Shown here piece by piece: positions 3,008 to 63,320 of a stretch of DNA of 64,000 nt; position 1 is the first letter of the stretch; the number at the start of each line of letters is the position of its first letter. The notes under the pieces were generated by a model that worked only from the letters and a program-made list of their open reading frames with translations, ran no database searches and was not told the origin of the DNA. The translations under genes and the position numbers were made by a program. Origin of the DNA: Candidatus Rokuibacteriota bacterium (GTDB taxonomy: Bacteria > Methylomirabilota > Methylomirabilia > Rokubacteriales > DASRDR01); contig JBIOTN010000223.1 of the NCBI GenBank assembly GCA_044866005.1, positions 2,354-66,353 of the forward strand. The letters are read 5' to 3'.

Positions 3008-3046
3008 CCTGCCGGGCCGCGAAGCGAGGACGCCGGGACGCGACGC

Positions 3047-4240
3047 CTATCGGCCCGGCTCCTGGAAGTCGCGAAGGATCCGACGGGCCACCACCATCCG
3101 GTGCACTTCGTCCGGGCCGTCGTAGATCCGTGCCGCGCGGGCCTCGCGATAGAAGCCCTCGAGCGGCGTGTCGGCCGAGATGCCGGCGGCGCCGTGAGCC
3201 TGGATCGCCCGATCGATGACGTCGATCAGGACCCGGGCGCCGAAGAACTTGATGAGCGAGATCTCGAGCCGCGCGTCGAGCTTCTGATCCATCTTCCACG
3301 CCGCGTGGAGCGTCATGAGCCGCGCCGCCTGGATCTCGGCGGCGGAATCGGCGATCCAGTTCTGGATCGTCTGCTTCTCCGCGAGCGCGGACCCGAAGGC
3401 CTCCCGCCGCGTCACGTGGCGACACATCAGCTCGAGGCTCCGCTGGGCGACGCCGATCCAGCGCATGCAGTGCTGGATGCGTCCCGGCCCGAGTCGGGCC
3501 TGCGCGATCTTGAAGCCCGCGCCGCGCGGGCCCAGGAGGTTGCCGGCCGGGACGCGGCAGTCCTCGTAGCGGATCTCGCAGTGCCCGCCGCGCGCCCGGA
3601 CGTGTCCCATGACGGGGACCTGGCGGACGATCCGGAAGCCCGGCGTGTCGGTCGGGACGATGATGAGGCTGAACCGGCCGTGGGGCCCGGCGTCGGGGTC
3701 GGTCCTGGCCATCACGATCGCGAACGCCGCGCCCACCGCGCCCGTGGTGAACCACTTGTGCCCGTTGATCACCCAGGTGTCGCCGGCGAGGACGGCCGTG
3801 GTCCGGAGGTCTGTCGGGTCCGCGCCCGAGACCTCCGGCTCCGTCATCGAGAAGCAGGAGCGGACCTCGCCGGCCACGTTGGGGCGGAGGTAGCGGCGCT
3901 TCTGCTCCTCGGTGCCGTAGAGGTGGAGGACCTCGCAGTTGCCGGCGTCCGGCGCCTGGCAGCCGAAGACGATCGGGCCGATCGGGCTGCGCCCGATGAT
4001 CTCGTTGACCAGGGCGAGGCCGACCACCCCGATCCCCATCCCGCCGACCTCCTCGGGCATGTGGGGCGCCCAGAGGCCGCGCGCCTTGACCCGCGCCTGG
4101 AGCGCGCGCAGCCGCTCGAGCGGGAGCCCTTCCCCCTCGTCCACCATCTCCCGCTCCGCCGGATAGACCTCGCGCTCCATGACGTCCGTCACGGCGGTCC
4201 GGATCTGGTCGAGCTCGGGCGGAATGCTGAAATCGATCAT
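3047..4240 (-). CDS. acyl-CoA dehydrogenase
   Basis: Start at the ATG 4238-4240 (MIDFSIPPELDQIRTAV...) with GAGGAGG upstream; the longer ORF in the track is an N-terminal over-extension. ACAD motifs: FGCQAPDAGN, TGAVGAAFAIVMART, YDGPDEVHRMVVAR at the C-terminus. Confidence 0.85.
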   Translation of the reverse strand: MIDFSIPPELDQIRTAVTDVMEREVYPAEREMVDEGEGLPLERLRALQARVKARGLWAPHMPEEVGGMGIGVVGLALVNEIIGRSPIGPIVFGCQAPDAGNCEVLHLYGTEEQKRRYLRPNVAGEVRSCFSMTEPEVSGADPTDLRTTAVLAGDTWVINGHKWFTTGAVGAAFAIVMARTDPDAGPHGRFSLIIVPTDTPGFRIVRQVPVMGHVRARGGHCEIRYEDCRVPAGNLLGPRGAGFKIAQARLGPGRIQHCMRWIGVAQRSLELMCRHVTRREAFGSALAEKQTIQNWIADSAAEIQAARLMTLHAAWKMDQKLDARLEISLIKFFGARVLIDVIDRAIQAHGAAGISADTPLEGFYREARAARIYDGPDEVHRMVVARRILRDFQEPGR

Positions 4241-4448: not shown

Positions 4449-5969
4449 GTGGGCCTAGCCATCTTCGACTTGCTGCGCGGGGGCGCCGCGCTCGCCGCGG
4501 TCGTCCTCGCGATCTCCGTCATCCGGACGGTCTGCCGGCGACCGCCCCTCCGGCGCCTGAGCCTCGCCCTCTCGCTCGCCGCCGCCGCCGGCGGCCTCGC
4601 CCTCTTCCGCTACCTCGTCCCGTCGAGCGCCGAGCGGCTCGCCCCGTACCTCTTCGTCGGCTACCTGTTCGCGCTGGCTTACACCGCCTTCAAGCTCGTC
4701 GAGGTGATCCTCCTCGACGTCGTCACGGTACGCCAGGGCGGCGCGCCGCCGCCCGCGATCCTGCGCGACATCGTCTCCGCCATGTTCGCGGCCCTGATGC
4801 TGGTCATGCTCCTCCGCGCCGGGCTCGGGGTCGACGTCACCACCCTCGTGGCCACCTCCGCGGCGCTCTCCATCGTGCTCGGCTTCGCGCTCCAGGAGAC
4901 CCTCGCCAACCTGTTCGCCGGCCTGGCCCTGATGATCGAGCGCCCGTTCGAGCCGGGCGACTGGGTGCGGTTCGGCGAGCGGGTGGGCCGGGTGAAGGAG
5001 GTGAGCTGGCGCGCCGTCAAGCTCCAGCTCCTCCGGCAGGAAGACTCCCTGGTCATCCCCAACAGCGTGGTGGCGAAGAGCGAGATCGTGAACCTGAGCC
5101 AGCCCACCCCCCTCCACGGCCAGTCCGTCGAGGTCGGCGTCGCCTACGGGGAGCCCCCGAACCGGGTCCGCCAGGTCCTCATCGACGCCGCCCTCGAGGT
5201 CGAGGGGGTGGCGCGGGAGCCGCGACCGCGCGCCGCCGTGCTCCGGTTCGACAATTTCGCGGTCGTCTACCGGCTGACCTACTGGATCCAGAGCTTCGCC
5301 CACGTCTACGACATCGAGGGCGAGGTCCTCGCCCACATCTGGTACGCCTTCCGTCGCCACGGCATCCAGATCCCCTTCCCCATCTCCGACGTGCACTGGC
5401 GGGACGCCGGCGTGGCGGAGAGCGCGGCGCGGCACCAGGAGCTCGCGCGCGTCGCCGGGCTGCTCCGGAGCGTGGACTTCCTCGCCGCGCTCACGCAGGA
5501 CGAGATCGACCGGCTGACCGCCGCGGTGCGGTTCGAGCCGTTCCCCGGCGGGATGGTCGTCGTCCGGCAAGGCGACGCGGGGGACAGCCTCTTCGTCATC
5601 GCCGCGGGGCGCGTCCAGGTGACCGCCCAGCCGCCGGGCGGCGGTGCGGAGCGCCTGATCGCGGTGATCGAGGCCGGCAACTACTTCGGCGAGATGTCGC
5701 TCCTGACCGGGGCGCCGCGCTCGGCGACCGTCCGGACCCTGGAGGACACGGAACTGCTCGTCCTGACCCGCGACGCCTTGCGGCCGCTCCTCGTCAGCGA
5801 CCCCGCCGCGGCGGAGCGGCTCTCGCAGACCCTGGCGAAGCGCAAGGCCGAGCGCGACGACACGCTGCAACCGGTGAGCGTGGAGTCCCCCGTGTCGGGC
5901 GGCGACGTCTCGCCGTTCCTGCTGAGCCGCATTCGCCGGTTCTTCGGCCTGCTCGGGGGCGAGAGCTGA
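4449..5969 (+). CDS. mechanosensitive channel MscS family protein with C-terminal cyclic-nucleotide-binding (cNMP) domain
   Basis: GTG start at 4449 preceded by GGAGGTGA. Three or more N-terminal TM helices. MscS beta-domain: LGFALQETLANLFAGLALMIERPFEPGDWV. C-terminal CAP-type cNMP-binding domain: FEPFPGGMVVVRQGDAGDSLFVIAAGRVQV...GNYFGEMSLLTGAPRSATVRT. Confidence 0.8.
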   Translation: MGLAIFDLLRGGAALAAVVLAISVIRTVCRRPPLRRLSLALSLAAAAGGLALFRYLVPSSAERLAPYLFVGYLFALAYTAFKLVEVILLDVVTVRQGGAPPPAILRDIVSAMFAALMLVMLLRAGLGVDVTTLVATSAALSIVLGFALQETLANLFAGLALMIERPFEPGDWVRFGERVGRVKEVSWRAVKLQLLRQEDSLVIPNSVVAKSEIVNLSQPTPLHGQSVEVGVAYGEPPNRVRQVLIDAALEVEGVAREPRPRAAVLRFDNFAVVYRLTYWIQSFAHVYDIEGEVLAHIWYAFRRHGIQIPFPISDVHWRDAGVAESAARHQELARVAGLLRSVDFLAALTQDEIDRLTAAVRFEPFPGGMVVVRQGDAGDSLFVIAAGRVQVTAQPPGGGAERLIAVIEAGNYFGEMSLLTGAPRSATVRTLEDTELLVLTRDALRPLLVSDPAAAERLSQTLAKRKAERDDTLQPVSVESPVSGGDVSPFLLSRIRRFFGLLGGES

Positions 5970-5995: not shown

Positions 5996-6316
5996 ATGGT
6001 GAGGCTCTCGGTGATCTACCAGGGCCGCCCGCAGGATCCCGCGGCCTTCGACGACTACTACTGGTCGAAGCACCTGCCGACGGTCGTCCGCTGGCCGGGG
6101 GTCCGGCGGGTCGAGGTGGCGCGGGGCGAGCCAGGCGACGAGATCTACCAGATCTGCGACATCTACTTCGACTCGACCGAGGCCTTGCGCGCCGCGCTCG
6201 CGTCGCCGGAGCGCAAGGTCTCCCTCGAGGACGCCCGGCGCTTTCCCGCCTTCGAGGGCCAGGTCAAGCGGCAAGTCTTCGAGGTCCGCCCCTTCTCCAC
6301 GCCGCCTGCCCGCTGA
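5996..6316 (+). CDS. EthD-family protein (Dabb-like small enzyme/domain)
   Basis: 106 aa: MVRLSVIYQGRPQDPAAFDDYYWSKHLP...YQICDIYFDSTEALRAALASPE matches the EthD family profile. Confidence 0.6.
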   Translation: MVRLSVIYQGRPQDPAAFDDYYWSKHLPTVVRWPGVRRVEVARGEPGDEIYQICDIYFDSTEALRAALASPERKVSLEDARRFPAFEGQVKRQVFEVRPFSTPPAR

Positions 6317-11561: not shown

Positions 11562-11825
11562 ATGGCGGACGATTCGACCCGGAAGCTCCTCAAGGTCTTC
11601 GGCGTCGCGGTGACCGAGTGCGAGGATGCCCTCGCCGCCCTCACGGCGGCGCTCCGCGAGCCGTCCGGCGGCGGCCCGGCGCCGGTCGACGCGGTCGAGG
11701 CCTACGGCAAGGCGGCGCGCGAGCTGTCGGCGCGATGGAGCGAGGTGAGCCGCCTGATCCTCGACTACCACGTGCGCGCCCAGCAGGCCGTCGAACACCA
11801 CCTTCGCGCGCGCGGGTCGGCCTAG
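11562..11825 (+). CDS. hypothetical small protein
   Basis: 87 aa, ATG preceded by GGAGG. No family recognised. Confidence 0.3.
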   Translation: MADDSTRKLLKVFGVAVTECEDALAALTAALREPSGGGPAPVDAVEAYGKAARELSARWSEVSRLILDYHVRAQQAVEHHLRARGSA

Positions 11826-11826
11826 G

Positions 11827-11948
11827 ACATCGGGGGGGCCTCGGAAGACCCCCCCGATGCCCCCGTCGTTGCGGCGGCAAAGACGCCACTCGGAGTGGAA
11901 CGTCCCGAGCGTTGCGGTGCGCCGGCTTACTCCGACAGGCGCCTAGGT
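11827..11948. repeat. intergenic GC-rich palindromic repeat, family A (CATCGGGGGGG..TCGGAAGA..CCCCCCCGATG hairpin plus GTTGCGGCGGCAAAG module); near-identical inverted copy at 55388-55511
   Basis: Direct sequence comparison: the reverse complement of 55388-55511 matches 11827-11948 over ~120 bp with few mismatches. Core hairpin copies also occur at 32340-32380, 44270-44356, 45768-45848 and 56878-56950. Confidence 0.8.
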
Positions 11949-12083
11949 TTCTCGGGGGATCGGCGCACCCCGCGCCGTACAATGGGGGGGACGCTGGCGG
12001 CGCGCCCCCCGAACCGCGACCCGGCGCGCGTCGCCTCCCGGGTCGGGTCGGACAACGGCTGGGTCGCCGGGGAGGGCACTGGC

Positions 12084-12506
12084 ATGAGAGCTCGGCTCGT
12101 CACCTGGTTGCTCGTCGCCGTCACGCTGGCCCTGCTGGCGCCGACCGCCGGCCGCGCCGACGTCTCCGTCAACGTCAACATCGGCGCGCCGCCGCCGCCC
12201 GCCATCGTGGTACCGGCGCCGCCCGCGCTCGTGATCGTGCCGGGGGTGCCGACGGTCCAGTACGCTCCCGCGCTCCAGGTCGACCTCTTCTTCTTCGACC
12301 ACCGCTGGTACTACCCTCACGGCGGCTTCTGGTACGTGGGCCCCTCGTACAGGGGTCCCTGGCGGCCGATCGTGGTCGAGAAGCTGCCGCACGCGATCCT
12401 CGCCGTGCCGGTCAAGTACTACAAGGTGCCGCCGGGTCACTTGAAGAAGCTGGAGAGGGGCGGCCCCGGCGGCCCCGGGAAAGGCAAGGGCAAGGGACAC
12501 GACTGA
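12084..12506 (+). CDS. secreted protein of unknown function (signal peptide, Pro-rich, aromatic-rich C-terminal domain)
   Basis: ATG at 12084 preceded by GGAGGG; MRARLVTWLLVAVTLALLAPTAGRA signal peptide. The upstream part of the 11895 track ORF lies in the repeat and is spurious. Confidence 0.5.
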   Translation: MRARLVTWLLVAVTLALLAPTAGRADVSVNVNIGAPPPPAIVVPAPPALVIVPGVPTVQYAPALQVDLFFFDHRWYYPHGGFWYVGPSYRGPWRPIVVEKLPHAILAVPVKYYKVPPGHLKKLERGGPGGPGKGKGKGHD

Positions 12507-16218: not shown

Positions 16219-16767
16219 TCACACCGGCGCGGCGGGATCGGGGTAGGTGAGGCTCGTGCCCTCCACGCGGGCGAATGGGGTGAGGGTGTGCAGGCGCGAC
16301 GAGCGCGGGCCCATCAGGTGGCGCACCTCGACGCCGCGGATCGCGAGGGCGTCGGCGATCAGCGATCGATGACAGCGCCAGGGGACGGCCTCGGTGCAGG
16401 CGATTGCGGTCGGGGTGGCGGCGGCCAGCGCGAGCAGCTCCGCGAGCCCGGCGGTGAAGGCGGGCGTCGCCATGTAGTCCGCGTAGCCCCGGAAGGAGAG
16501 GTTCCGCCAGCCGGTGTTCGGCGAGTCCGGGCGCGGCTTCCGGAACCCGCCGAGCGCGGGGAGATGATGGTAGCGGATTCCGTGGGCGGGGAGCGCGGCC
16601 GCGACGGCCTCGCGGTTCCACTGCGGCGTGTGGCGCGAGCGGGGCACCGTGCGGACGTCGACCAGGAGCTCGACGCCCTCGGGGCGGAGGACGGCGAGGA
16701 AGTCGTCCACCGTCCGCGTCGAGAAGCCGACCGTGTGGAGAACCGCGGGCGCGGCTCCCCGCGTCAG
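16219..16767 (-). CDS. DUF488 family protein
   Basis: LHTVGFSTRTVDDFLAVLRPEGVELLVDVRTVPRSRHTPQWNREAVAAALPAHGIRYHHLPALGG matches the DUF488 consensus (TiGHStr...F...L....I..lvDVR..P.S). No canonical ATG/GTG/TTG lies at the expected N-terminus; the start is placed at a CTG immediately after the upstream gene's stop and is uncertain. Confidence 0.5.
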   Translation of the reverse strand: MTRGAAPAVLHTVGFSTRTVDDFLAVLRPEGVELLVDVRTVPRSRHTPQWNREAVAAALPAHGIRYHHLPALGGFRKPRPDSPNTGWRNLSFRGYADYMATPAFTAGLAELLALAAATPTAIACTEAVPWRCHRSLIADALAIRGVEVRHLMGPRSSRLHTLTPFARVEGTSLTYPDPAAPV

Positions 16768-17795: not shown

Positions 17796-18083
17796 TGGCT
17801 CTGGCTCCTCCGTGGTCAGTCGCGTGCGGGGACCAGCAGCGCGAGAGCAGCGGGCGGCGACGATCGGGCCCGCCGTCGGCACGGCAGGCCTATTCTAACG
17901 TCCGCCGGCCGGGCCGAGAAGCGAGCAGCCCCGGCGTACGCGGGAGCGGGCCGAGACCCGAGCAGGTCAAGGACGCGAAGAGCCCGGGGGGAGGCAGGCC
18001 CGATGCCGTCGCCGAAGGGCGACGGCCGCGGCTTTGCCGCGAGGGCCGTCGGAGGGGGCTGTCGAAGCCCCCTCCGAAGTGAA

Positions 18084-18518
18084 TCAGCGCCAGGAGCCGG
18101 GGACGAGCACCCACCCCCACCCATTCCAGATCCATTGCGGCGGGACGAAGACCGGGGGCGGCCCGGACGGCGAGCCGGCGCCGTGGCAGGCGCCACAGTG
18201 GTAGCCCCATCCGTGACCGTAGCCGCGACCGTAGTAGCCGAAGCCACGGTCGCCGGCGCCCCGGCCCCAGCTCCCGTCGCGAAAGCCGGGGCGCGCACGG
18301 TCGTCGACCCAGCCGGGGCGCTGGGGGATCGCGTAGGCCGGGGGCGACGCGGGCTCCCGCCCCGACCCGTACCCGGAGGGGTAGGCGGAGCCGCTCCCCG
18401 GCGCACCGCCGGCCAGGGCCGGCCCCGGCGAGGCGGACCCGACCACGACCCCGGCGAGGGCGAGCGCGACCCCGGTCGCCACGTGAGCCCGACGTCTCGA
18501 GCCAGTCGTCTCGCGCAT
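18084..18518 (-). CDS. glycine/tyrosine-rich secreted protein of unknown function
   Basis: Start at ATG 18516-18518 with GGGAGG upstream. Signal peptide MRETTGSRRRAHVATGVALALAGVVVGSASPGPALA. Mature part is low-complexity: GYGSGREP...GFGYYGRGYGHGWGYHCGACHGAG...WIWNGWGWVLVPGSWR. Confidence 0.45.
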   Translation of the reverse strand: MRETTGSRRRAHVATGVALALAGVVVGSASPGPALAGGAPGSGSAYPSGYGSGREPASPPAYAIPQRPGWVDDRARPGFRDGSWGRGAGDRGFGYYGRGYGHGWGYHCGACHGAGSPSGPPPVFVPPQWIWNGWGWVLVPGSWR

Positions 18519-24831: not shown

Positions 24832-25554
24832 GTGAGCCCGCCCGCCCCGCTCCTGACGGTCGAGGACGTCCACGCCGGCTACGGCCGGACCCCGATCCTC
24901 CACGGCGTGAGCCTGAGCGTGCGGGCGCGCGAGGTCGTGGCGATCATCGGTCCGAACGGCGCCGGCAAGTCCACCGCCTTCAAGGTCATCGTGGGCTTCC
25001 TGCGTCCGCAGCAAGGACACGTTCGGTTCGACGGGGCGCCCATCACGGCCCTCCGCCCCGACGAGGTGCTGCGGCGGGGGCTCGCCTACGTGCCCCAGGG
25101 GCGTATCGTATTCCCGCAGATGACCGTGCTCGAGAATCTGGAGATGGGGGCCTACATCGAGCGCGACCGGGGGCGGATCGCCGAGGCCCTGGAGCGCGTG
25201 TACCGGCTCTTCCCCATCCTCCGCGAGCGCGGCCGGCAGAAGGCCGGCACGCTGTCGGGCGGGGAGCAGCAGATGCTCGCCATCGGGCGCGCCCTGATGA
25301 CGCAGCCGCGGCTGATCCTGCTCGACGAGCCGTCGCTCGGGTTGTCCCCGAAGTTCCTCGGGATCATCTTCGAGAAGATCGCCGAGCTGAAGGCGGCCGG
25401 CATGACGATGATGATCGTCGAGCAGAACGCGGTGAAGGCGCTCGCGGTGGCCGACCGGGGCTACGTGCTCGAGCTGGGGCGGAACCGGTTCGAGGGCCCC
25501 GGCCCCGCGCTCCTGGCGGATCCCGAAGTGAAGCGCCTCTACCTGGGCGGCTAG
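24832..25554 (+). CDS. livF: branched-chain amino acid ABC transporter ATP-binding protein LivF
   Basis: Walker A GPNGAGKST, signature LSGGEQQMLAIGRAL, Walker B LILLDEPSLGL. Typical LivF N-terminus LLTVEDVHAGYG. Confidence 0.9.
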   Translation: MSPPAPLLTVEDVHAGYGRTPILHGVSLSVRAREVVAIIGPNGAGKSTAFKVIVGFLRPQQGHVRFDGAPITALRPDEVLRRGLAYVPQGRIVFPQMTVLENLEMGAYIERDRGRIAEALERVYRLFPILRERGRQKAGTLSGGEQQMLAIGRALMTQPRLILLDEPSLGLSPKFLGIIFEKIAELKAAGMTMMIVEQNAVKALAVADRGYVLELGRNRFEGPGPALLADPEVKRLYLGG

Positions 25555-25559
25555 CGGCC

Positions 25560-25735
25560 GTGCCGATAAGCATCGCATCCCGGCGTCCTCGGTCGTCGGC
25601 GGCCCTCAACGTACAACCGCGTACGCCTCGGGCCGCCTCCTCCCTGCGTCCTGGGGCTGCTCGCTTCTCGGCCCGGCCGATCGCGGCCGTGCCGATAAGC
25701 ATCGCATCCCGGCGTCCTCGGAAGACGCCGTGAGG
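25560..25735. repeat. intergenic repeat family B, two tandem units starting GTGCCGATAAGCATCGCATCCCGGCGTCCTCGG (25560 and 25689); related copies at 39906-40135 and 63229-63320
   Basis: A 33-bp direct repeat lies 129 bp apart. The 39906 copy shares the flanking GTGCCGATAAGC(A/G)TCGCATCCCGGCGTCCT and GTCGTCGGCGGCCCTCAACGTACA(A/C)CCGCGTACGC modules plus a 56-bp extra segment. That extra segment is also found at 63240-63310. Confidence 0.8.
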
Positions 25736-32263: not shown

Positions 32264-32339
32264 GCCCTCACCCCGCCCCGCCGACACGCGAGCCACTCCA
32301 CGCGACGCGCTCGACGTGCTAGCGCGTTCCAACTTCCGA

Positions 32340-32380
32340 GAGGGGCATCGGGGGGGTCTTCCGAGACCCCCCCGAAGAGC
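32340..32380. repeat. family A hairpin repeat (CATCGGGGGGGTCTTCCGAGACCCCCCCGA)
   Basis: Sequence identity with the cores at 45818-45848 and 55478-55508. Confidence 0.7.
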
Positions 32381-33877
32381 TCATACGTACGTGCGCTCGG
32401 CCCGGCGGAGGGCCCGGTAGCGCTCGAAGGCCCGGCGCTCGTCCTCGAGTCCCACGAGCGAGCGGAGCGTGCTGCCGCGGAAAGTGTGGGCGAGCATCTT
32501 CCACCAGTTCCGCAGGAGGAACCCCGGGCTGTGTCGGAGCACCGCCCCCATGTGGCGGAGCTTGAGCCACCGCTCGGCGCGCCAGCGCATGAACTCGATC
32601 TCGTCGGCCGCCAGGTGCGCGCTCCGCACCACGGCCGTCGTGCCGTCGTACTCGTCCACGTTCTCGTTGACGACCAGGCCGCGCTCGCGAAACTCCCTGG
32701 TCATGGGCGTCCGGGGATAGGGGGTGGGGTGCTGGATGTAGGGGTAGTCGACGTAGCGCCGGGCGAAGTCGAGGTTCGCGGTCACCGACTCCCGCGTGTC
32801 GTCGGGGTTGCCGACGATCAGCCCGCCGACCACGTACATGCCGTGCCGGTGCAGGTGGTCGATCGCCGCGAGGGTCGCGTTGCCGGCTCGCCGGCCGTTT
32901 TCCCGCCTGAGGTTCTTCGCGGTCGCCCGGAGGAAGCGGAGATCCTGCTCCAGGACGTTCTCGATCCCGAGGAAGACGTAGCGGAACCCGGCCCGCCGCA
33001 TCAGCGGCGCGAGGGTGTCGCCGTGGCTGGCGATCGCGGACGTCATGGCCTGCACGGTGTACTCGAGGTCGTCGAGCCCGGCGTCCACGATGGCGCGGCA
33101 GAGCGCCGCGAAGCGCCGGACGTCGAGCGTGATGTTGTCGTCCACGAGGAAGATGGCCCGCGCGCCGTGCTCCCGGGCGTCGCGGATGTCCGCCAGCACC
33201 CGGTCGAACGCGTAGCGGTGGAAGTTCCGGCCCCGCATCTCGATGATCGAGCAGAAGCTGCAGTCGAACGTGCAGCCCCGCGAGGTCTCCACGACGTCCA
33301 CGGGACGACCGAGCAGCGTGTAGCCGCTCAGCACGCGCGCGGCCCGGCGGGGCGGGCGGATCTCGCCGCCCTCGAGGCCGGTGACCGGGCGATCCGGATT
33401 GTGGACGAACCCGGCCCCGCGCCGGTGGGAGAGCCCCCCGATCCGGTCCAGGGGAAGGCCGTGCTCCAGCGCCCGGAGAAGCTCCCGGAACGTGAGCTCG
33501 CCCTCGCCGCGGACGATGAAGTCGACCGCCCCGCCCGCGGCCGCGGCGTAGGCCTCGGCGGCCAGGCTCGGGTCGTAGCCCCCCACGACGATGCGCGCGG
33601 CCGGTCGCAGCGCCCGGCAGAGCTCGATGAGCCGGACCGCCGTCTTCCGCTGGAAGGTCATGATGGAGAGGCCGACGACGTCGGGCGCGCGCTCGCGCAC
33701 GAGCCGCTCGACGGTCTCGCGCACCCGGCGCTGGACCAGGATGAGGTCGGCGACCGCGACCTGGTGATGCGGATCCACGTTGCCGGCCAGCGAGGTCAGC
33801 GCGCCGTTCGGCATGCGGATGCCGATGGTCGGCATGTGTTCGAACGAATCGGGCATGGAGAGGAGCAGGACGTTCAT
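32381..33877 (-). CDS. B12-binding-domain radical SAM protein (class B radical SAM)
   Basis: N-terminal cobalamin-binding Rossmann (MNVLLLSMPDS...VVGLSIMTFQ...IVVGGYD). Radical SAM cluster motif CTFDCSFC. 498 aa. Confidence 0.85.
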   Translation of the reverse strand: MNVLLLSMPDSFEHMPTIGIRMPNGALTSLAGNVDPHHQVAVADLILVQRRVRETVERLVRERAPDVVGLSIMTFQRKTAVRLIELCRALRPAARIVVGGYDPSLAAEAYAAAAGGAVDFIVRGEGELTFRELLRALEHGLPLDRIGGLSHRRGAGFVHNPDRPVTGLEGGEIRPPRRAARVLSGYTLLGRPVDVVETSRGCTFDCSFCSIIEMRGRNFHRYAFDRVLADIRDAREHGARAIFLVDDNITLDVRRFAALCRAIVDAGLDDLEYTVQAMTSAIASHGDTLAPLMRRAGFRYVFLGIENVLEQDLRFLRATAKNLRRENGRRAGNATLAAIDHLHRHGMYVVGGLIVGNPDDTRESVTANLDFARRYVDYPYIQHPTPYPRTPMTREFRERGLVVNENVDEYDGTTAVVRSAHLAADEIEFMRWRAERWLKLRHMGAVLRHSPGFLLRNWWKMLAHTFRGSTLRSLVGLEDERRAFERYRALRRAERTYV

Positions 33878-39297: not shown

Positions 39298-39909
39298 ATG
39301 ATGACGCGCGTGGGGCGCCGCCTGTTCCTCCTGGGCCTCGCCGGCCTTCTCGCCGCCTGTGTCCCCGTGACCGTCAACGTCAACTTCCCGCAGGAGAAGA
39401 TCGAGGGCGCGGCGGATCGGATCGAGGACATGGTCCGGAGCCCGGAGAATCCGAAGCCCGCGCCGGCCGCCCCGAAGAAGGGGCCGCAGGGGAGCCTCGG
39501 GCGTCGCGTGCTCGCCGCGCTCGCCCCGCGGCAAGCCGAGGCTCAGACCCGGAACGTCGACGTGATGCCCGAGATCCGCGTGCGGACGCCGGAGCTGATG
39601 AAGGCGATCGAGTCTCGTCGCGCCCGGCGGGCCGAGCTCGACCAGTGGAAGAGGCGTGGCTGCATCGGCGAGACCAATCAGGCGCTCCTGGAAGCCCGCC
39701 CGGGCCAGGACTGCTCGCCCGAGGTGGCACGACTGATCGGCGCGGAGAACGCCGACCGCCAGTACATCGTCCGGACGCTGATGGAGCAGAACAACATGCC
39801 GCAGGCCGACGCGCCGCGGGTGTATGCGGCCTTCGCCAAGATCCGGCGCGAACGGTCGAATCCGGGGGACTGGGTCCAGCAGGAGGACGGCTCCTGGGTC
39901 AAGAAGTAG
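39298..39909 (+). CDS. fusion of a YnbE-like lipoprotein module and a YdbL-like (DUF1318) periplasmic domain
   Basis: ATG preceded by GAGGAG. Lipobox LLAAC followed by VPVTVNVNFPQEKIEGAADRIEDMV (YnbE-like ITINMNVKIEHEI pattern). C-terminal ELDQWKRRGCIGETNQALLEARPGQ...AENADRQYIV...WVQQEDGSWVKK (DUF1318/YdbL-like). Confidence 0.5.
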   Translation: MMTRVGRRLFLLGLAGLLAACVPVTVNVNFPQEKIEGAADRIEDMVRSPENPKPAPAAPKKGPQGSLGRRVLAALAPRQAEAQTRNVDVMPEIRVRTPELMKAIESRRARRAELDQWKRRGCIGETNQALLEARPGQDCSPEVARLIGAENADRQYIVRTLMEQNNMPQADAPRVYAAFAKIRRERSNPGDWVQQEDGSWVKK

Positions 39910-40135
39910 CGCGCCGTGCCGATAAGCGTCGCATCCCGGCGTCCTGCATCACGGCCGGGACGCGCTCGGCCTGCGGGCTCGCGGCCGTCCCGGCCTCTGG
40001 GGTCGTCGGCGGCCCTCAACGTACACCCGCGTACGCTTCGGGCCGCCTCCTCCCTGCGTCCCGGGGCTGCTCGCTTCTCGGCCCGGCGCCTGCCACCGTC
40101 GCCGCCGTGCCGATGACCGTACTTCGGCCGGGCGT
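39906..40135. repeat. intergenic repeat family B copy (with 56-bp additional module)
   Basis: Aligns to 25560-25735 and to 63229-63320. Confidence 0.8.
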
Positions 40136-42132: not shown

Positions 42133-43326
42133 ATGGACTTCCGCTACTCCGCCGCCGAGGAGGCCTTTCGGGCCGAGCTCTCCGCGTGGCTCGCCGCCGA
42201 GCTGCCCGCCCATCGCGCGGAGTGGCCGCCGACGGACGACGAGTTCACGCTCCACCCCGACCGCGCCTTCGACGCCTGCCTGGCGTGGCACCGGCGACTT
42301 CACAAGGGGGGCTGGGTCGGCATCGCGTGGCCGCGCGAGTACGGCGGGCGCGGGGCCACGCTCGTCGAGCAGATGGTCTTCCAGGAAGAGATGGTGAAGG
42401 CCGGCGCCCCCCCGGGGGTGAACACGATCGGCCTCATGCTGGTCGGCCCGGCGCTCATGGCGTGGGGAAGCGAGGAGCAGCGCCGGCGGTACCTGCCGCC
42501 GATCCTCGCCGCGGACGAGCTCTGGTGTCAGGGCTTCTCGGAGCCCGGCGCCGGCTCGGATCTGGCGTCCCTCCAGACGCGCGCCGTCGTCGACGACGGC
42601 GGCTTCCGCGTCTCGGGGCAGAAGGTCTGGACGTCCCACGCGCACCGCAGCCAATTCAGCATCCTGCTCGTCCGGACGGACCCGGCCGCGCCGAGGCACG
42701 AGGGGATCTCCTGCCTCCTGGTCGACATGCGAAGCCCCGGCATCACGATCCGCCCGCTCGTCCAGATCACCGGCGACGCCGAGTTCAACGAGGTCTTCTT
42801 CGACGACGTCCGCGTGCCCCGCGCCCACCTCGTGGGCCCGCTCCACGGCGGCTGGAAGGTCGCGATCACCGTGCTCATGTACGAGCGGGCCGGGCTCGGC
42901 AACCAGACGAACCTCCACCACTACACGCGCCTGCTCCTCGACCTGGCGCGCCGGACCCGGTGCGGCGACCGGCCGGCCGCGGCGGATCCCGTCACGCGAC
43001 AGGCGCTCGCCCAGTGCTGGATCGAGGCGGAGGCGCTGCGGCTCACGGGCCTGCGGTCCATCACGCGCCGGCTCCGCGGCGAGCCGCCAGGGCCCGAGGG
43101 CTCCATCCTGAAGCTGGCGTTCACGGAGGCGTACGTGCGGATGGCGGAGACCGCGGCTCACATCCTCGGCCCGCACGGCCTGCTCTGGCGCGGCACGCCC
43201 CGCGCCGTGGACGCCGGGCGCTGGGCCTTCCAGGCCCTCTTCGCCCGGCGGTTCGGGATCGCCGGCGGCACCTCCGAGATCCAGCGCAACATCATCGGCG
43301 AACGCATCCTTGGCCTCCCCCGCTGA
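42133..43326 (+). CDS. acyl-CoA dehydrogenase
   Basis: MDFRYSAAEEAFRAELSAWL..., ACAD middle domain (CQGFSEPGAGSDLASL) and C-terminal domain. Confidence 0.85.
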   Translation: MDFRYSAAEEAFRAELSAWLAAELPAHRAEWPPTDDEFTLHPDRAFDACLAWHRRLHKGGWVGIAWPREYGGRGATLVEQMVFQEEMVKAGAPPGVNTIGLMLVGPALMAWGSEEQRRRYLPPILAADELWCQGFSEPGAGSDLASLQTRAVVDDGGFRVSGQKVWTSHAHRSQFSILLVRTDPAAPRHEGISCLLVDMRSPGITIRPLVQITGDAEFNEVFFDDVRVPRAHLVGPLHGGWKVAITVLMYERAGLGNQTNLHHYTRLLLDLARRTRCGDRPAAADPVTRQALAQCWIEAEALRLTGLRSITRRLRGEPPGPEGSILKLAFTEAYVRMAETAAHILGPHGLLWRGTPRAVDAGRWAFQALFARRFGIAGGTSEIQRNIIGERILGLPR

Positions 43327-43452
43327 TCACCTCGGCGGGGGGCCGGGCCCCCCTCCGACGGCGCTCCGGGCGAAGCCCGGCCGGTCGCTCTTCAGCGACG
43401 GGCTCGCGCCTGCCTCCCCCCGCGCCGCCACCCCGTCGCGGGTCTCGCGTTC

Positions 43453-44241
43453 GTGACGCAGCCTCCGGACGCCCTACTGGAGGTCGCGGTCGAGGCGGCA
43501 CGCGGCGCCGGCGCGCTGGCCCTCCGCTACTTCACCGGCGGCTTCGACGTCACGCTCAAGGCGGACCGGACGCCGGTGACCCAGGCCGACCGCGAGGCGG
43601 AGGCGGCGATCGTGGCGCAGCTCGGCGCCGCGTTCCCCGACGTCGGGTTCCTCGGGGAAGAGTTCGGCGCCCGGGGGCCTCAGGCACGACGCTGGATCAT
43701 CGACCCGATCGACGGGACGAAGAACTTCGTCCGCGGCCTCCCGTACTGGGCCACTCTCCTGGCGCTCGAGGAAGAAGGCGAGGTGACGCTGGGCGTCGTC
43801 CACGCGCCGGCCACCGGCGACCTCTTGTGGGGGCGGCGGGGCCAGGGCGCTTTCGCGAACGGGACGCGGCTTCGCGTGTCGGGGGTCGACCGGCTCGGCG
43901 AGGCGACGGTGCTCCACTCGAGCCTCAAGTATCTGAGGCGCCTCGCCTCGGCCGGCTACTGGGACGGGTTCGTTCGGCTCGTGGAGGCGACCGAGCGCCA
44001 GCAGGGGTTCGGCGACTACCTCGCGTATACCGTCGTCCTGCGGGGACAGGCCGAGCTGATGCTCGACGCCGACGTCAAGCCGTGGGACCTCGCGCCGTTC
44101 GTGGTTCTCTTCCAGGAAGCCGGCGGACGGCTGACCGACTTCGAAGGCCGGCCGACAATCTACTCGGGCACGGCGCTGGCCTCGAACGCCCGCCTGCACA
44201 CGGCGGCGCTCTCCCTCCTCCACGGCGGCCGCCCCGGCTGA
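43453..44241 (+). CDS. inositol monophosphatase family protein (IMPase/HisN-like)
   Basis: Motifs FLGEE...WIIDPIDGTKNFVRGLPYWA and WDLAPFVVLFQEAGG. Confidence 0.8.
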   Translation: MTQPPDALLEVAVEAARGAGALALRYFTGGFDVTLKADRTPVTQADREAEAAIVAQLGAAFPDVGFLGEEFGARGPQARRWIIDPIDGTKNFVRGLPYWATLLALEEEGEVTLGVVHAPATGDLLWGRRGQGAFANGTRLRVSGVDRLGEATVLHSSLKYLRRLASAGYWDGFVRLVEATERQQGFGDYLAYTVVLRGQAELMLDADVKPWDLAPFVVLFQEAGGRLTDFEGRPTIYSGTALASNARLHTAALSLLHGGRPG

Positions 44242-44269
44242 TCCGCGCGCCGACCCCGGAAGATCGCGA

Positions 44270-44356
44270 CCAGAGTTGCGAAGCATCCGAGCGCCGGCTG
44301 GGCCGGCGCAACGAGGGGGGCCTCGGGGGGGTTTTCCGAACCCCCCCCGAAGGCTA
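44270..44356. repeat. family A repeat copy (GCAACGAGGGGGGCCTCGGGGGGGTTTTCCGAACCCCCCCCGAAGG)
   Basis: Similar to the 45768-45848 and 55441-55511 copies; lies between convergent genes. Confidence 0.7.
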
Positions 44357-45106
44357 AACCCAGCCGCCCGCGAACGGGATCACCTGGCCGCAGAAAAATT
44401 CCGCTTCGTCGGAGGCCAGGTAAACAGCCAGTCGCGCCGACTCCTCGGAACGCGCCAGCCGGCCGGCCGGGACGTGCTTGACCACGCGAGCGAGCTTCTC
44501 CGGGTTCCCCACGATGTCCTGCCCGAAGTAGGTGGGGTTCTCCACGAAGTTCTGGGCGATGGCGTTGACCTGGATGCCGTGGCGGGCGACCTCACGGCCG
44601 ACCGCCTTGGTCAGGCCGTTCGTCGCGGCGCGGGCGGCGGAGTACGCGGCGTAGTTCGGGAGGCCCGAGAGCGCGACGGCGGAGGTGAAGTTGATGATCT
44701 TGCCGCGGCCCTGCCGCCGCATCGCGCGGAGCGCGGCCCGCATGCAGAAGAACGGCTCGTCCACGAGCGCGGCAGTCAGCGAGCGCCAGGCCTCGTCCGA
44801 GGTCTCCTCGAACGGTCCGCCAAGCGGGGTGTGGCTGGAGTTGTTCAGGAGGACGTCCAGCCGGCCGAACCGCTCGACCACGGCGCGCACCACCCGCGCC
44901 GCTTCCGCCGAGCGGGTGAGATCGCCGGCCACGATCATCGCCTCGCGCCCGTAGGCCATCGTCACCTCGAGCGCCGGCTTCGCCCGCGCCTCCGCGCGGT
45001 CGTGGAGGGCGAGGATCGCCCCCTCTTTGGCGAACTCCTCCGCGCAGGCCGGCCCCATGAACTGGCTCACGTTCGTGATGAGGGTGACTTTGCCGGTGAG
45101 CTTCAT
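44354..45106 (-). CDS. SDR-family oxidoreductase (short-chain dehydrogenase/reductase)
   Basis: TGKVTLITNVSQFMGPACAEEFAKEGA (degenerate TGxxxGxG) and YAAYSAARAATNGLTK (YxxxK catalytic motif). Confidence 0.8.
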   Translation of the reverse strand: MKLTGKVTLITNVSQFMGPACAEEFAKEGAILALHDRAEARAKPALEVTMAYGREAMIVAGDLTRSAEAARVVRAVVERFGRLDVLLNNSSHTPLGGPFEETSDEAWRSLTAALVDEPFFCMRAALRAMRRQGRGKIINFTSAVALSGLPNYAAYSAARAATNGLTKAVGREVARHGIQVNAIAQNFVENPTYFGQDIVGNPEKLARVVKHVPAGRLARSEESARLAVYLASDEAEFFCGQVIPFAGGWV

Positions 45107-45267: not shown

Positions 45268-45705
45268 ATGGACTGGCTCCTCATCAGTTACCCGTCCTGG
45301 TCGACTTTGGTCATCCGCGTCGTGCTGGGCATCATCTTCTTCGCGCACGGCGCGCAGAAGGTCCTCGGATGGTTCGGCGGCCACGGCCTCAAGGGCACGA
45401 CCCAGTCTTTCACTTCCATGGGTCTGCCCCTCGCCGTCGCCTACCTCGTCTGCTTCTTCGAATTCCTCGGCGGGATCGGCCTCGTCCTCGGCTTGCTGAG
45501 CCGGCTGGCCGCGCTGGCGATCATCGTCGTGATGGTCGGCGCGATCGTGAAGGTCCACGCCCAGCACGGCTTTTTCCTCAACTGGTCGCTCACGCCGGGG
45601 AAAGGGCACGGATACGAGGCGAACCTCGCCTTTATCGCGATGGGGCTCGCCGTGCTGATCGCCGGCGGCGGCGCCCTCTCCCTCGACCGCCTGATTCTTC
45701 GCTAG
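45268..45705 (+). CDS. DoxX-family membrane protein
   Basis: ATG preceded by AAGGGAGGG. Four TM helices: RVVLGIIFFAHGAQKVLGWFGGHG...FEFLGGIGLVLGLLSRLAAL. Confidence 0.75.
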   Translation: MDWLLISYPSWSTLVIRVVLGIIFFAHGAQKVLGWFGGHGLKGTTQSFTSMGLPLAVAYLVCFFEFLGGIGLVLGLLSRLAALAIIVVMVGAIVKVHAQHGFFLNWSLTPGKGHGYEANLAFIAMGLAVLIAGGGALSLDRLILR

Positions 45706-45767
45706 CGAGGCGGAGGGGTCAACTCTTCCGGCCCTGAGGGAAGAGCGTCGAGCCCTCGGACCCCGGC

Positions 45768-45848
45768 CGGCAGCCGTCCGAGCGGCGGCTTTGCCGCCGC
45801 AACGAGGGGGGGGAATCGGGGGGGTCTTCCGAGACCCCCCCGAAGAAC
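45768..45848. repeat. family A repeat copy (CCGAGCGGCGGCTTTGCCGCCGCAACGAGGGGGGGGAATCGGGGGGGTCTTCCGAGACCCCCCCGAAG)
   Basis: Two consecutive hairpins; identical module order to the 55441-55511 copy. Confidence 0.8.
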
Positions 45849-55079: not shown

Positions 55080-55387
55080 GAGTTTCGGAGAGGGCCCTCG
55101 ACGGCCCCCTCCGATTCCTCCCCCAGGACTGTTGCGCGGGAGAGGCCCGCGCTGGGAGCGCTTCGTTGAAGGGAGCCCGAGGGTATCTGGCGGTCAGCGT
55201 CCTTGCCGCGGTGCCGACCGCGGGTGACGGAGCCCCCCGGAGCGGGACAAGCCGGCGGCAGGACCCGCGGTCGGGACGGTGGGATGACGGGGCGTCCGGA
55301 CCCGCGCGGGTCCCTGCTCGCCCGGCGGCAGGACCCGCGGCCGCCAGCGTGGGCTGCGGCGCAGGACCCGGCCACCAGCGCGTTCGG

Positions 55388-55511
55388 CTAGGGGCCTGTC
55401 GGAGTAAGCCGGCGCACCGCAACGCTCGGGACGTTCCACTCCGAGCGGCGGCTCCGCCGCCGCAACGACGGGGGGGCATCGGGGGGGGTCTTCCGAGACC
55501 CCCCCGATGCC
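55388..55511. repeat. family A repeat, ~120-bp near-identical inverted copy of 11827-11948
   Basis: Reverse complement matches 11827-11948 nearly base for base. Track ORFs 55194-55439(-) and 11895(+) share the identical repeat-derived N-terminus MERPERCGAPAYSD. Confidence 0.8.
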
Positions 55512-56483
55512 TTAGGGGACCAGGAGGACTTTGCCGGTGGCGCGGCGCGCGGCCAGGTAGGCGTGCGCCTCCTCGACGGCGGCCATCGGGAAGGTGCGGT
55601 CCACGACCGGCGTGAGGCGCCCGGCCGCGGCGAGCTCGACGATCTCCCGCAAGGCGTTCCCGTGCATGTCGAGCCGCCACGGTCGCCGTCCGAGGTGAAG
55701 GCCGCGGACGGCGAGGTTCCGGGTGAGGATCACGTCCCCGCCGAGGGCCCCCGGCTCGCCCGACGCGCGGCCGTAGACTACGAGCCGTCCGCCCGGAACG
55801 AGCGCCTTCGCGCTCTGCGCGAGCACCTCGCCCCCCACGCACTCGAGCACGACGTCGACCCCGCGGTTGTCCGTCCTCGCGAGGACTGCGGTCACGAAGC
55901 TGTCTCGCGCGTAGTTGATCGTCTCGTCGGCGCCGAGCGCCCGCACGGCGGCGAGCTTCTCGTCGGTCGAGGCGGTCGCGAAGACGCGGGCGCCCCGCTG
56001 CTTGGCGAGCTGTACCGCGAGCGTGCCGACACCGCTCGCGGCCGCGTGGATCAGCACCGACTCGCCCGGCCGCACGCCGGCTGCCGTCTCGAGTAGGTGG
56101 TAGGCGGTGACGCCCGCCAGCGGGAGCGCGCCCGCGGCTTCCAGCGAGAGGCCGGCCGGGAGTCGCTGGACGAGCGCCGCGGGCGCCAGCACGTACTCGG
56201 CCTGACACCGCTGACCGAGCATCGTCAGCACGCGATCCCCTGCTCGCAGGCCGGTCACGTCGGTCCCGACGCGCGCGACGGTCCCGGCGACCTCGACACC
56301 CTCGGCGTGGGGGAGCGGCAGCTCCGGATTGTAGACGCCGGCGCGGCGCATGAGGTCCGAGAAGTTGACGCCGGCCGCCGCGGCGCGGATGAGGACGTCA
56401 GTCGGGCCCACGGCGGGCTCGGGGACGTCCTCGTAGCGCAGGACCTCGGGGCCGCCGAACCCGTGAAACCGGACCGCCTTCAT
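55512..56483 (-). CDS. NADPH:quinone oxidoreductase / zinc-binding MDR-family dehydrogenase
   Basis: MKAVRFHGFGGPEVLRYEDVPEPAVGPTDVLIRAAAAGVNFSDL. Rossmann AASGVGTLAVQLAKQRGARVFATAST. Confidence 0.85.
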   Translation of the reverse strand: MKAVRFHGFGGPEVLRYEDVPEPAVGPTDVLIRAAAAGVNFSDLMRRAGVYNPELPLPHAEGVEVAGTVARVGTDVTGLRAGDRVLTMLGQRCQAEYVLAPAALVQRLPAGLSLEAAGALPLAGVTAYHLLETAAGVRPGESVLIHAAASGVGTLAVQLAKQRGARVFATASTDEKLAAVRALGADETINYARDSFVTAVLARTDNRGVDVVLECVGGEVLAQSAKALVPGGRLVVYGRASGEPGALGGDVILTRNLAVRGLHLGRRPWRLDMHGNALREIVELAAAGRLTPVVDRTFPMAAVEEAHAYLAARRATGKVLLVP

Positions 56484-56826: not shown

Positions 56827-56877
56827 GTCAGTTGCGTCCTCCGTCGGGAGAATCGTGCGACACCAGTGCGTAGGCTA

Positions 56878-56950
56878 CCTGAGCCGTCCGAGCGGCGGCT
56901 TTGCCGCCGCAACCGAGGGGGAGGATTCGGAGGGGGCCGTCGAGGCCCCC
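56878..56950. repeat. degenerate family A repeat (CCGAGCGGCGGCTTTGCCGCCGCAACCGAGGGGGAGGATTCGGAGGGGGCCGTCGAGGCCCCCTTCGATGGG); inverted relative of 55085-55125
   Basis: Shares the GCGGCGGCTTTGCCGCCGC hairpin with 45781-45800. Its second half is the reverse complement of 55085-55125. Confidence 0.6.
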
Positions 56951-56960
56951 TTCGATGGGA

Positions 56961-57266
56961 CTACAGCTCGACGAGGATGGCGCCCCCCTCCACCTTCACC
57001 GGATAGCAGCTCATCTTGATCGTCGGGTTCAGAACGTTCTCACCGGTGGTGACGTCGTAGCGCCAGCCGTGCCAGGGGCAGGTGACGATCCGCCCCTCGA
57101 GGTCGCCCTCGCCGAGCGGCCCGCCCCGGTGGTGGCAGGCGTTGTCGATCGCGTAGATCGTCCCGCCGACGTTGAACAGGGCGAGCGTCTTCCCGTCGGC
57201 CTCCACCACCGCGGCGCTGTCGGCCGGCACGGCCGTGGCGTCCGCGACCTTCGTCCACTTCGCCAT
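56961..57266 (-). CDS. Rieske [2Fe-2S] domain protein (small ferredoxin-type)
   Basis: Start at ATG 57264-57266 with GGAGGGGAG upstream. Cluster ligands CHHRGGPL ... CPWHGW. 101 aa. Confidence 0.75.
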   Translation of the reverse strand: MAKWTKVADATAVPADSAAVVEADGKTLALFNVGGTIYAIDNACHHRGGPLGEGDLEGRIVTCPWHGWRYDVTTGENVLNPTIKMSCYPVKVEGGAILVEL

Positions 57267-63217: not shown

Positions 63218-63228
63218 GGCGGCCCGGG

Positions 63229-63320
63229 CCGAGACCCTTCGCATCCCGGCGTCCTGCATCACGCCCGGGACGCGCTCGGCCTGCGGCCTCGCGGCCGTCC
63301 CGGGCTCTGGGGCCCGGGTC
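63229..63320. repeat. partial repeat family B copy (CGCATCCCGGCGTCCTGCATCACGCCCGGGACGCGCTCGGCCTGCGGCCTCGCGGCCGTCCCGGGCTCTGGGG)
   Basis: Matches 39928-40000 with few mismatches. Confidence 0.75.

Follow-up and report, generated by a model that had tools for sequence, protein, structure and literature searches.

Bacterial MITEs (miniature transposable elements with inverted repeats), such as Correia/NEMIS in Neisseria, are small, high-copy intergenic elements that lie near gene 3' ends and fold into long hairpins. Derivatives of IS630/Tc1-mariner insertion sequences (IS) duplicate TA, classically within CTAG, and IS5-type elements target YTAR. Among high-GC bacteria, the Rhizobium-specific intergenic mosaic element (RIME) is a modular mosaic of two large palindromes and linkers. 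The mycobacterial interspersed repetitive units (MIRU) are modular intergenic elements between operon genes, tandem direct repeats with small open reading frames (ORFs) whose ends overlap the stop and start codons of their neighbours. To our knowledge, stop-codon-type-specific subfamilies have not been reported for RIME or MIRU. The repetitive extragenic palindromes (REPs) and bacterial interspersed mosaic elements (BIMEs) of Enterobacteria and Pseudomonas are short, G/C-rich and extragenic, and occur in hundreds of copies and in mosaics with other motifs. In E. coli, ribosomes stall at REPs that lie ≤15 nt from a stop (Liang, Rudd and Deutscher 2015, summarised in PMC12306157), 11-52% of REPs are given as near a stop depending on the REP set (same summary), and other REPs are described as stabilising the upstream mRNA (PMC12306157, PMC3733652, PMC8266576). 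Here we describe family A, a hairpin repeat found in a 64,000-nt stretch (hereafter, the window) of contig JBIOTN010000223.1 from the Candidatus Rokuibacteriota assembly GCA_044866005.1. Rokubacteria/Methylomirabilota are soil bacteria, abundant and uncultured, whose genomes are large and high in GC, and the literature searches made returned no description of their intergenic repeats. Family A is a new family of the known REP/MITE-like kind with an unusually precise position, and it is probably a lineage-specific, non-autonomous MITE-like mobile element with REP-like hairpins that inserts at stop codons.

Family A is a mosaic of 50-200 nt that consists of a variable left module, a hairpin (H2), a G-run and a second hairpin (H1), based on 93 oriented and aligned copies. 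This orientation, from left module to H1, is used throughout, and strand refers to the strand of the element; L-numbered loci are compared stretches outside the window. At least two modular subfamilies, sub1 and sub2, can be told apart. Family A resembles REPs and BIMEs in its short G/C-rich palindromes, its high copy number, its extragenic position and its mosaic build. In contrast to them, it has no GTAG or CGTC tag, occurs mostly as single units and is flanked by direct repeats. It also differs in its stop-adjacent placement (77% of copies, vs. the 11-52% that the E. coli summary gives), in a stop type that is subfamily-specific, and in that no REP-associated tyrosine transposase (RAYT) was found in the ~0.74 Mb examined, which comprises the window and the loci selected by H1 and is a small, biased fraction of the genomes. 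With bacterial MITEs it shares its small size, high copy number and intergenic position near gene 3' ends, the ability to form long hairpins, direct repeats at both ends, an apparent preference for a CTAG-containing target (sub2) and orthologous sites that are filled in one genome and empty in another. Unlike MITEs, it has a repeat that appears to be ~6 bp long, rather than 2 or 4 bp, and to start exactly at the stop triplet, its sub1 is tied to TCA (TGA), which holds no TA, its terminal inverted repeats are weak, and the examined sequence yielded no parent IS. RIME and MIRU are likewise modular intergenic elements of high-GC bacteria; they differ in having no sequence similarity to family A, and MIRU is not a hairpin mosaic. 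Intrinsic terminators also place a G/C-rich hairpin just past a gene, but family A has no U-tract, copies at unrelated genes share the sequence of the loop, the flanks and the extra modules, and its hairpin begins within the footprint of the terminating ribosome.

Distribution across genomes

Family A is a genuine, high-copy repeat specific to one Rokubacteria lineage. The exact 22-nt core of H1 (GGGGGGTCTTCCGAGACCCCCC) is present in at least 88 stretches of a one-genome-per-species collection, and all of the core matches listed come from metagenome-assembled genomes (MAGs) of Candidatus Rokubacteria/Methylomirabilota (MFD10007.bin.2.196, SMAG_U4595 and MFD06229.bin.1.275). At least 95 exact cores lie within the ~0.74 Mb. 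The preliminary description of the window had read the repeats as a dispersed intergenic family of REP/MITE-like type, and this is borne out by the dispersal within a single lineage and by the covarying structure described below. The core had no match in viral contigs and none in plasmids, so a phage or plasmid origin is unsupported. Family A also had no match in 557 kb around orthologues of a radical S-adenosylmethionine (radical-SAM) gene from more distant relatives; these metagenome loci show 70-80% amino-acid identity and 52-73% GC, and only one of them, L099, is informative, as an empty arrangement. The window gave no Rfam 15 match at the gathering score, the copy within 55350-55550 gives sub-threshold chance matches only, and no tRNA or transfer-messenger RNA (tmRNA) genes were found in the window.

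One window protein is identical in two NCBI MAGs, GCA_044870165.1 and GCA_044867585.1, and the window is syntenic with parts of MFD10007 at ~80% nucleotide identity. Two short-read contigs (L093, Logan SRR30692723; L095, Logan SRR30692709) carry the genes that adjoin the window copies 55394-55511 and 44242-44353. Both contigs end 31-34 nt past the stop of the neighbouring gene, inside H1, as happens because a high-copy repeat breaks assemblies. Integron attC sites and CRISPR arrays were set aside as identities for the repeats since there is no co-oriented cassette array and no regular spacing, as judged from the copy layout alone with no dedicated test.

Architecture and conserved structure

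H1 has the form (CA)TCGGGGGGGTCT-TCCG-AGACCCCCCCGA(TG), measures 28-32 nt and folds on its own at about -26 kcal/mol. Its stem is 12-14 bp long and its loop 4 nt, in place of the G7/C7 stem and 10-nt loop of the preliminary description. The bases before H1 vary (CATC, AATC, CCTC, TGTC, TCTC), and their TC pairs with GA, so this stretch is partly stem. H2 is 19 nt long, with an 8-bp stem and a 2-4-nt loop, and is preceded by T(C/T)CGAG; these loops are triloops and not UNCG tetraloops. The left module varies greatly and is often cut short, and shortened forms go down to a solo H1 (window 32319-32380; L080). In sub1, which is found in MFD10007 and measures about 175-200 nt, H2 is GCCGCGGC and the left part contains ...GTGAACCAATGCCGGCGGCTCCCATTCCCACCGCCCGTCGGCTTCTCGCAAC.... 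In sub2, found in both MAGs and in the window, H2 is GCGGCGGC or GCGCCGGC, the length is about 115-125 nt, and the element starts with CTAG(G)-5 nt-TGTCGGAGTAACC.

Both hairpins are supported by covariation in an alignment of 35 sequences. The paired positions of H2 and H1 can pair in 88.6% of cells, vs. 47-57% when the partners are slid, and the covariation score is 0.123, vs. at most 0.048 for slid partners, a value that none of 500 shuffles reached. Two H2 pairs alternate between G-C and C-G (19:14 and 27:6 across the 35 sequences), and H1 variants carry compensated changes (TCGG-A-GGGGG/CCCCC-T-CCGA and GTGT/ACAC). In the diverged window copy 18018-18083, a G-C to A-T change in the stem is compensated as well, and the folding z-score is -5.0.

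The alignments show no conserved GTAG or CGTC tag beside either hairpin; the left module does begin with a TGTCGG motif, but no palindrome adjoins it. Compared by eye, the sub2 ends (CTAGGnnnTGTCGGAG vs. the reverse complement CTAGGTCATTTCGGGG) agree at about 12-14 of 17 positions and the sub1 ends (TGAACC vs. TGAGAACC) are likewise imperfect, and part of this symmetry results from H1 being a palindrome. Most loci hold a single copy, with one head-to-head dimer (L089) and one tandem pair (L024), and none of the 95 copies examined in context lay within a called gene.

An extra 26-nt hairpin (CCAAAGGCCGAAGGCCGTCCAACAGT) is nested in the H2 loop of ~15 copies from both subfamilies. Nested H2-loop inserts were noted at L008, L011, L021, L025, L031, L032, L036, L039, L040, L053, L055, L062, L073, L079, L081 and L086, and a different insert of ~45 nt sits in the H2 loop of L041 and L059. 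The loop of H2 is a hot spot for inserts, and this suggests module exchange or secondary insertion. Two loci (L074:892-938 and L077:4962-4997) show a flip form in which the central 10 nt of H1 (TCT-TCCG-AGA) are inverted. Extrusion of the palindrome in vivo, or recombination between its two arms, would be expected to yield such a form.

Placement at stop codons

The H1 end of family A abuts stop codons. In 73 of 95 copies (77%), a long ORF on the opposite strand (at least 60 codons, G+C at third codon positions at least 0.8) has its stop starting 6-14 nt (mode 9) after the core; in these copies, 2-10 nt (mode 5) separate the stop from the foot of the 12-bp H1 stem. The gene on the H1 side reads into H1 in 66 of 87 cases. 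By gene context, 33 copies are tandem with H1 toward the stop, 10 are tandem in the other orientation with H1 toward the start, 22 are convergent and 6 are divergent. In the window, two copies fill entire spacers (44242-44353 and 45706-45848) and five lie directly after a stop (at 11826, 32380/1, 43327, 55511/2 and 56960/1).

The type of stop codon depends on the subfamily. Copies of sub1 abut TGA 35 times, TAG 3 times and TAA twice, and the 34 sub2 copies with a stop triplet abut TAG 28 times, TAA 4 times and TGA twice (Fisher p = 4e-13; p = 7e-11 inside MFD10007 alone). As read from the sequences, ~11 of the 20 copies without an abutting gene still carry CTAG at the H1 end, so the triplet belongs to the end of the element or to a duplicated target, and not only to a host stop. 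The window, with a GC content of about 73%, contains 21 CTAG vs. 154 expected from base composition, a 7-fold depletion, and almost all of them are at ORF ends; TTAA does not occur in it. Since CTAG is nearly confined to TAG stops, an element that seeks CTAG would land at gene ends. We infer from these patterns a target specificity, for CTAG or TCA, and with it a causal direction between the end of the element and the stop codon.

Direct repeats and filled and empty sites

The preliminary description had proposed looking for target-site duplications. In 12 of 80 copies, the left boundary carries an exact repeat of the hexamer made of the last sense codon and the stop triplet; in 2000 permutations the count was 2.8 +/- 1.6 and never exceeded 9. 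Matches of at least 6 nt number 20 vs. 7.2 expected, and in sub1 they consistently fall a few nucleotides before GTGAAC. Examples are CTCACTG, TCAGTG, TCAGCG, CTAGAAG and CTATGG; in the window, GCCTAG flanks the copy 11826-11940 perfectly, and the copy 55394-55511 lies between CTAGGG and TTAGGG. Judged from their sequence, these flanking repeats are the apparent signature of insertion with target duplication. At L007, a 62-nt duplication (5886-5947 and 6073-6134, with 3 mismatches) flanks the element and comprises the 3' end of an ABC-permease-like gene including its stop; it is far longer than the usual 6 nt, and may have arisen by another route of insertion or repair or through the assembly. 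An IS481-type 6-bp duplication centred on NCTAGN was rejected as a model for the repeats because the repeat starts at CTA and not one base earlier.

Comparisons between related genomes yielded four filled/empty sites and one site that is filled in both genomes with different modules. Two sites are filled in MFD10007 (L006 and L025) and empty in the window (16689-16764 and 22577). Conversely, the window copy 45706-45848 has an empty orthologous site in L040. In L099, the radical-SAM stop runs directly into sequence that matches the beginning of the AMP-binding gene, where the window has a spacer with 32319-32380 between the two genes. At the fifth site, behind an orthologous dehydrogenase gene, both the window (44242-44353) and L040 are filled, with H1 conserved and the left and H2 modules different. 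Exact-protein look-ups aimed at strain-level empty sites yielded nothing but the same arrangement or short contigs that end within H1. Together with the flanking short direct repeats, the filled/empty sites support an option already raised in the preliminary description, that of a small non-autonomous mobile element.

RNA-level features

H1 has no U-tract on either strand and is followed by a C-run or by GAAGATC-type tails, so the family A hairpins are not canonical intrinsic terminators. Terminator-like sites with a hairpin and a T-run number 3 in the 43-58 kb region vs. 3.8 in shuffles, and none of them is at a family A copy. No conserved promoter-like sequence was found at the left end; in 15 kb, one promoter-like site vs. 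0.4 expected was found, and it is not on the element. H1 may act as a terminator, an mRNA stabiliser or a ribosome-stalling structure. The closest functional parallel would be the E. coli REPs within 15 nt of a stop, along with REPs in general as protectors of upstream mRNA.

Interpretation and alternative explanations

Altogether, we think that family A is probably a MITE-like element of one lineage, non-autonomous and targeted to stop codons. Several observations weigh against this. The ~0.74 Mb yielded neither a transposase nor a full-length IS that shares the ends of the element. The left-end motif is always 87-155 nt from H1, which leaves no longer element sharing the left end, and only ordinary housekeeping-like genes with high GC3 lie between inverted pairs or in long left-hand gaps. 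Intact direct repeats are present in only ~15% of copies, and they vary in length (5-9 nt, with L007 at 62 nt) in a way that a single DDE transposase would not usually produce. The terminal inverted repeats are weak (about CTAGGnnnTnTCGGRG in sub2 and TGA(G)AACC in sub1). Exact insertion points are unreadable in the filled/empty comparisons because the genomes are only ~80% identical, and at one of these sites the stop itself differs (TGA when empty, TAA when filled). The loci were picked by the exact H1 core, which limits the H1 variation that can be observed and may bias subfamily counts. Finally, G-U and A-C mismatches and loop types are balanced without strand asymmetry, and the hairpins could therefore function at the DNA level or, in either sense, at the RNA level.

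The palindromes invite another explanation, namely a true REP/BIME system in which H1 and/or H2 serve as single-stranded DNA hairpins for a domesticated HUH tyrosine transposase (RAYT/TnpA-REP), encoded by one gene per genome, and spread without classical transposition. High-copy, short, G/C-rich imperfect palindromes that are extragenic and mostly downstream in tandem or convergent pairs match REP surveys (PMC3733652). The mosaic build, the L089 dimer and the L024 tandem pair recall BIMEs, the flipped loops of L074 and L077 are as expected with hairpin extrusion, and the covariation of the tail with the adjacent triplet loosely recalls the pairing of guide and cleavage site in IS200/IS605 and RAYT systems (PMC8266576). 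We nonetheless consider such a system rather unlikely. Neither hairpin carries the conserved tag, the copies are mostly singletons rather than inverted pairs, and over the ~0.74 Mb a scan for the HUH...YxxxNP motif found no RAYT and, with E. coli RayT as the tblastn query, the best E was 0.9. Direct repeats, which are not a product of HUH enzymes, exceed chance here and favour a MITE-type over a RAYT/REP-type origin. Selection at gene ends could also account for the placement, if the hairpins were functional 3'-end modules (U-tract-less terminators or mRNA stabilisers) homogenised by gene conversion instead of transposition. The position directly after stops, the preference of H1 for the stop in tandem pairs, the extreme stability of the hairpins with their compensatory changes, and the retention of H1 at 44242-44353 and L040 while other modules differ would all fit. 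An unrelated repeat, family B (described below), likewise begins at stop codons. As canonical terminators are no commoner than in shuffled sequence, another 3'-end signal would be needed. A convergent structural need, however, fails to explain why loops, tails and non-pairing modules are conserved at unrelated genes. Sites filled or empty between related genomes, copy-specific flanking direct repeats, the missing U-tract, and copies that lie upstream of starts or have no H1-side gene and still bear the terminal CTAG add to the case against this account, which we regard as distinctly improbable.

The covarying, conserved structure and an element strand that is usually antisense to the 3' end of the abutting gene would suit small-RNA genes or cis-antisense RNAs transcribed from the element's own strand. 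We find this very hard to reconcile with a left end that has no conserved promoter (the sole promoter-like site in 15 kb being off the element), with the absence of an Rfam match, with a left module that is highly variable and often truncated, and with the lack of a G-U strand bias. An assembly artefact, or a local duplication confined to the contig, has only the metagenomic source of the assembly to speak for it, and its probability is negligible: the element stands at many loci whose flanks are unique, and it does so in at least three MAGs that different projects assembled independently, as well as in two further assemblies of the window's species. Confinement of the copies to the window, which the preliminary description had named as the outcome that would overturn its reading, is thereby excluded.

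Under the MITE-like interpretation, the element would insert at a stop codon, with its H1 end a few nucleotides from the stop of the gene that reads in, and the hexamer of last sense codon and stop would be duplicated at the other end as a target-site duplication. One subfamily goes with TGA (its end reads ...TCTCA) and the other with TAG (...CCTAG), and in a genome of ~73% GC a CTAG-seeking element would land on TAG stops. Often the spacer between two neighbours consists entirely of the element. The transcript of the gene it abuts would gain a very stable hairpin without a U-tract within ~10 nt of its stop, and this could be a barrier to 3'-exonucleases, a U-tract-independent terminator or, like E. 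coli REPs, a staller of ribosomes at termination. A bolder proposal, which we advance only tentatively, is stop-codon homing: two sister subfamilies would recognise TGA and TAG, respectively, integrate at the 3' edge, duplicate the last codon and the stop, and install a very strong hairpin without a U-tract 3-7 nt downstream at hundreds of genes. A high-GC lineage without canonical terminators would then owe its 3'-end structures mainly to a selfish element, with roles in U-tract-less termination, mRNA protection or ribosome stalling.

Family A explains a large share of the intergenic DNA of the window, and it matters for MAG assembly and annotation through assembly breaks and false ORF starts (e.g., 11895-12506). 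If the link to stop codons reflects target choice, it would be a clean natural case of extreme base composition channelling a sequence-specific mobile element to gene ends. It would also offer hundreds of natural constructs with a hairpin at a set distance from the stop for the study of termination-coupled regulation and U-tract-less 3'-end formation.

Copies in the window

The window holds eight family A copies (Table 1). Seven of them had been listed before, and direct reading found every listed sequence in its place; the count of about seven missed the eighth, at 43327-43425. A search with the H2 motif GCGGCGGCWTTGCCGCCGC at ≤2 mismatches gave 6 matches over both strands, at 4 loci (shuffles expect 0.08), and the 32-nt H1 motif at ≤3 mismatches gave 3 window matches vs. 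0.00 expected. In a repeat search of the window, the copies fall in the direct families D1/D2 and the inverted pairs I1, I3, I10, I15 and I20. Pair I1 joins 11826-11940 and 55394-55511 (the 55388 locus), which are 94% complementary, and pair I2 (77 nt, 82% complementary) links 43327-43425 to the distant relative at 18020-18080.

That every copy sits at a gene end, as first noted, agrees with the TCA, CTA or TTA found within a few nucleotides beyond each H1 end. This triplet is the stop of an identified opposite-strand gene for six copies. The copy 18018-18083 abuts an ORF of uncertain reality, and 43327-43425 shows the same stop-abutting arrangement when read directly from the sequence. The reduced copy 32319-32380 lies within a 93-nt spacer that precedes a co-directional AMP-binding gene.

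Table 1. Family A copies in the window, with the stop codons, genes and direct repeats that adjoin them (strand of a copy is that of the element)
Feature	Position	Strand	Details
Full long-form copy, sub2-type, 115 nt	11826-11940	-	Left module, degenerate H2 11871-11889, C/G-run, H1 11828-11859
Stop before copy 11826-11940	TAG 11823-11825	+	Gene 11562-11825; copy follows directly
Direct repeat GCCTAG (last codon GCC + stop TAG)	11820-11825	.	Candidate 6-bp target-site duplication of copy 11826-11940
Second GCCTAG	11941-11946	.	Left-module (far) end of copy 11826-11940; CTAG at 11943
Distant relative, subfamily A'	about 18018-18083	+	H2-like hairpin 18024-18047; H1 variant GTCGGAGGGGGCT-GTCGA-AGCCCCCTCCGAAG 18048-18079; then TCA 18084-18086
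Reduced copy without H2	32319-32380	+	CTAG, left-module remnant (GTTCCAAC TTCCGAG), H1 32346-32377
Stop abutting copy 32319-32380	TCA 32381-32383	-	Stop of radical-SAM gene 32381-33877
Diverged copy, relative of the 18018 copy	43327-43425	-	H1 variant 43330-43359
Stop before copy 43327-43425	TGA 43324-43326	+	Acyl-CoA dehydrogenase gene 42133-43326; H1 variant starts 3 nt beyond
Copy occupying entire convergent spacer	44242-44353	+	H2 variant GCGCCGGC-TGG-GCCGGCGC 44291-44309; H1 variant, G7/C8 arms, 44321-44353
Genes around copy 44242-44353	43453-44241; 44354-45106	+; -	Inositol monophosphatase-like; short-chain dehydrogenase; convergent
Full copy filling spacer	45706-45848	+	H2 45782-45800; H1 45814-45845
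Genes around copy 45706-45848	CTAG 45702-45705; 45849-48461	; -	DoxX-like, TAG stop in the CTAG; PBP1A, TGA stop (TCA 45849-45851)
Full long-form copy, sub2-type, 118 nt	55394-55511	+	H2 55445-55463; H1 55477-55509
Flanks of copy 55394-55511	CTAGGG 55388-55393; TTAGGG 55512-55517		TTA 55512-55514 is the TAA stop of zinc-dependent alcohol dehydrogenase (Zn-ADH) gene 55512-56483 (-)
Diverged copy	about 56875-56960	+	Canonical H2 56892-56910; H1 variant TTCGGAGGGGGCC-GTCGA-GGCCCCCTTCGA 56926-56955
Stop abutting copy 56875-56960	CTA 56961-56963	-	TAG stop of Rieske gene 56961-57266

Spurious ORFs within the repeats, already reported in the preliminary description, were confirmed: the codons GTG GAA CGT CCC GAG CGT TGC GGT GCG CCG GCT TAC TCC GAC at 11895, which translate as MERPERCGAPAYSD, lie inside the element. 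In ORF 11895-12506 (+), with a counterpart at 55439 (-), the start chosen by the longest-ORF rule is this GTG. Because it falls inside the element, the downstream gene presumably begins at a later position, and longest-ORF callers over-extend the gene.

Other repeats near family A

A further hairpin repeat, family C (CCCCCCTCCCCC...GGGGGGAGGGGGGAGCCGGAG), is absent from the window when up to 3 mismatches are allowed. In MFD10007, it is often directly left of sub1 copies (L018, L036, L056, L066, L081 and L088), which gives BIME-like clusters of different repeats. Family B, with the core GCCGTGCCGATAAGCATCGCATCCCGGCGTCCT..., is unrelated to family A and occurs in the window at 25546-25601, 25675-25730, 39902-40087 and 63212-63312, and inverted at 3016-3059. 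Three of its copies start at or within a few nucleotides of a stop codon (CTAG at 25551, TAG at 39907-39909 and TGA at 63215-63217), and stop-abutting repeats may be a general feature of this genome.

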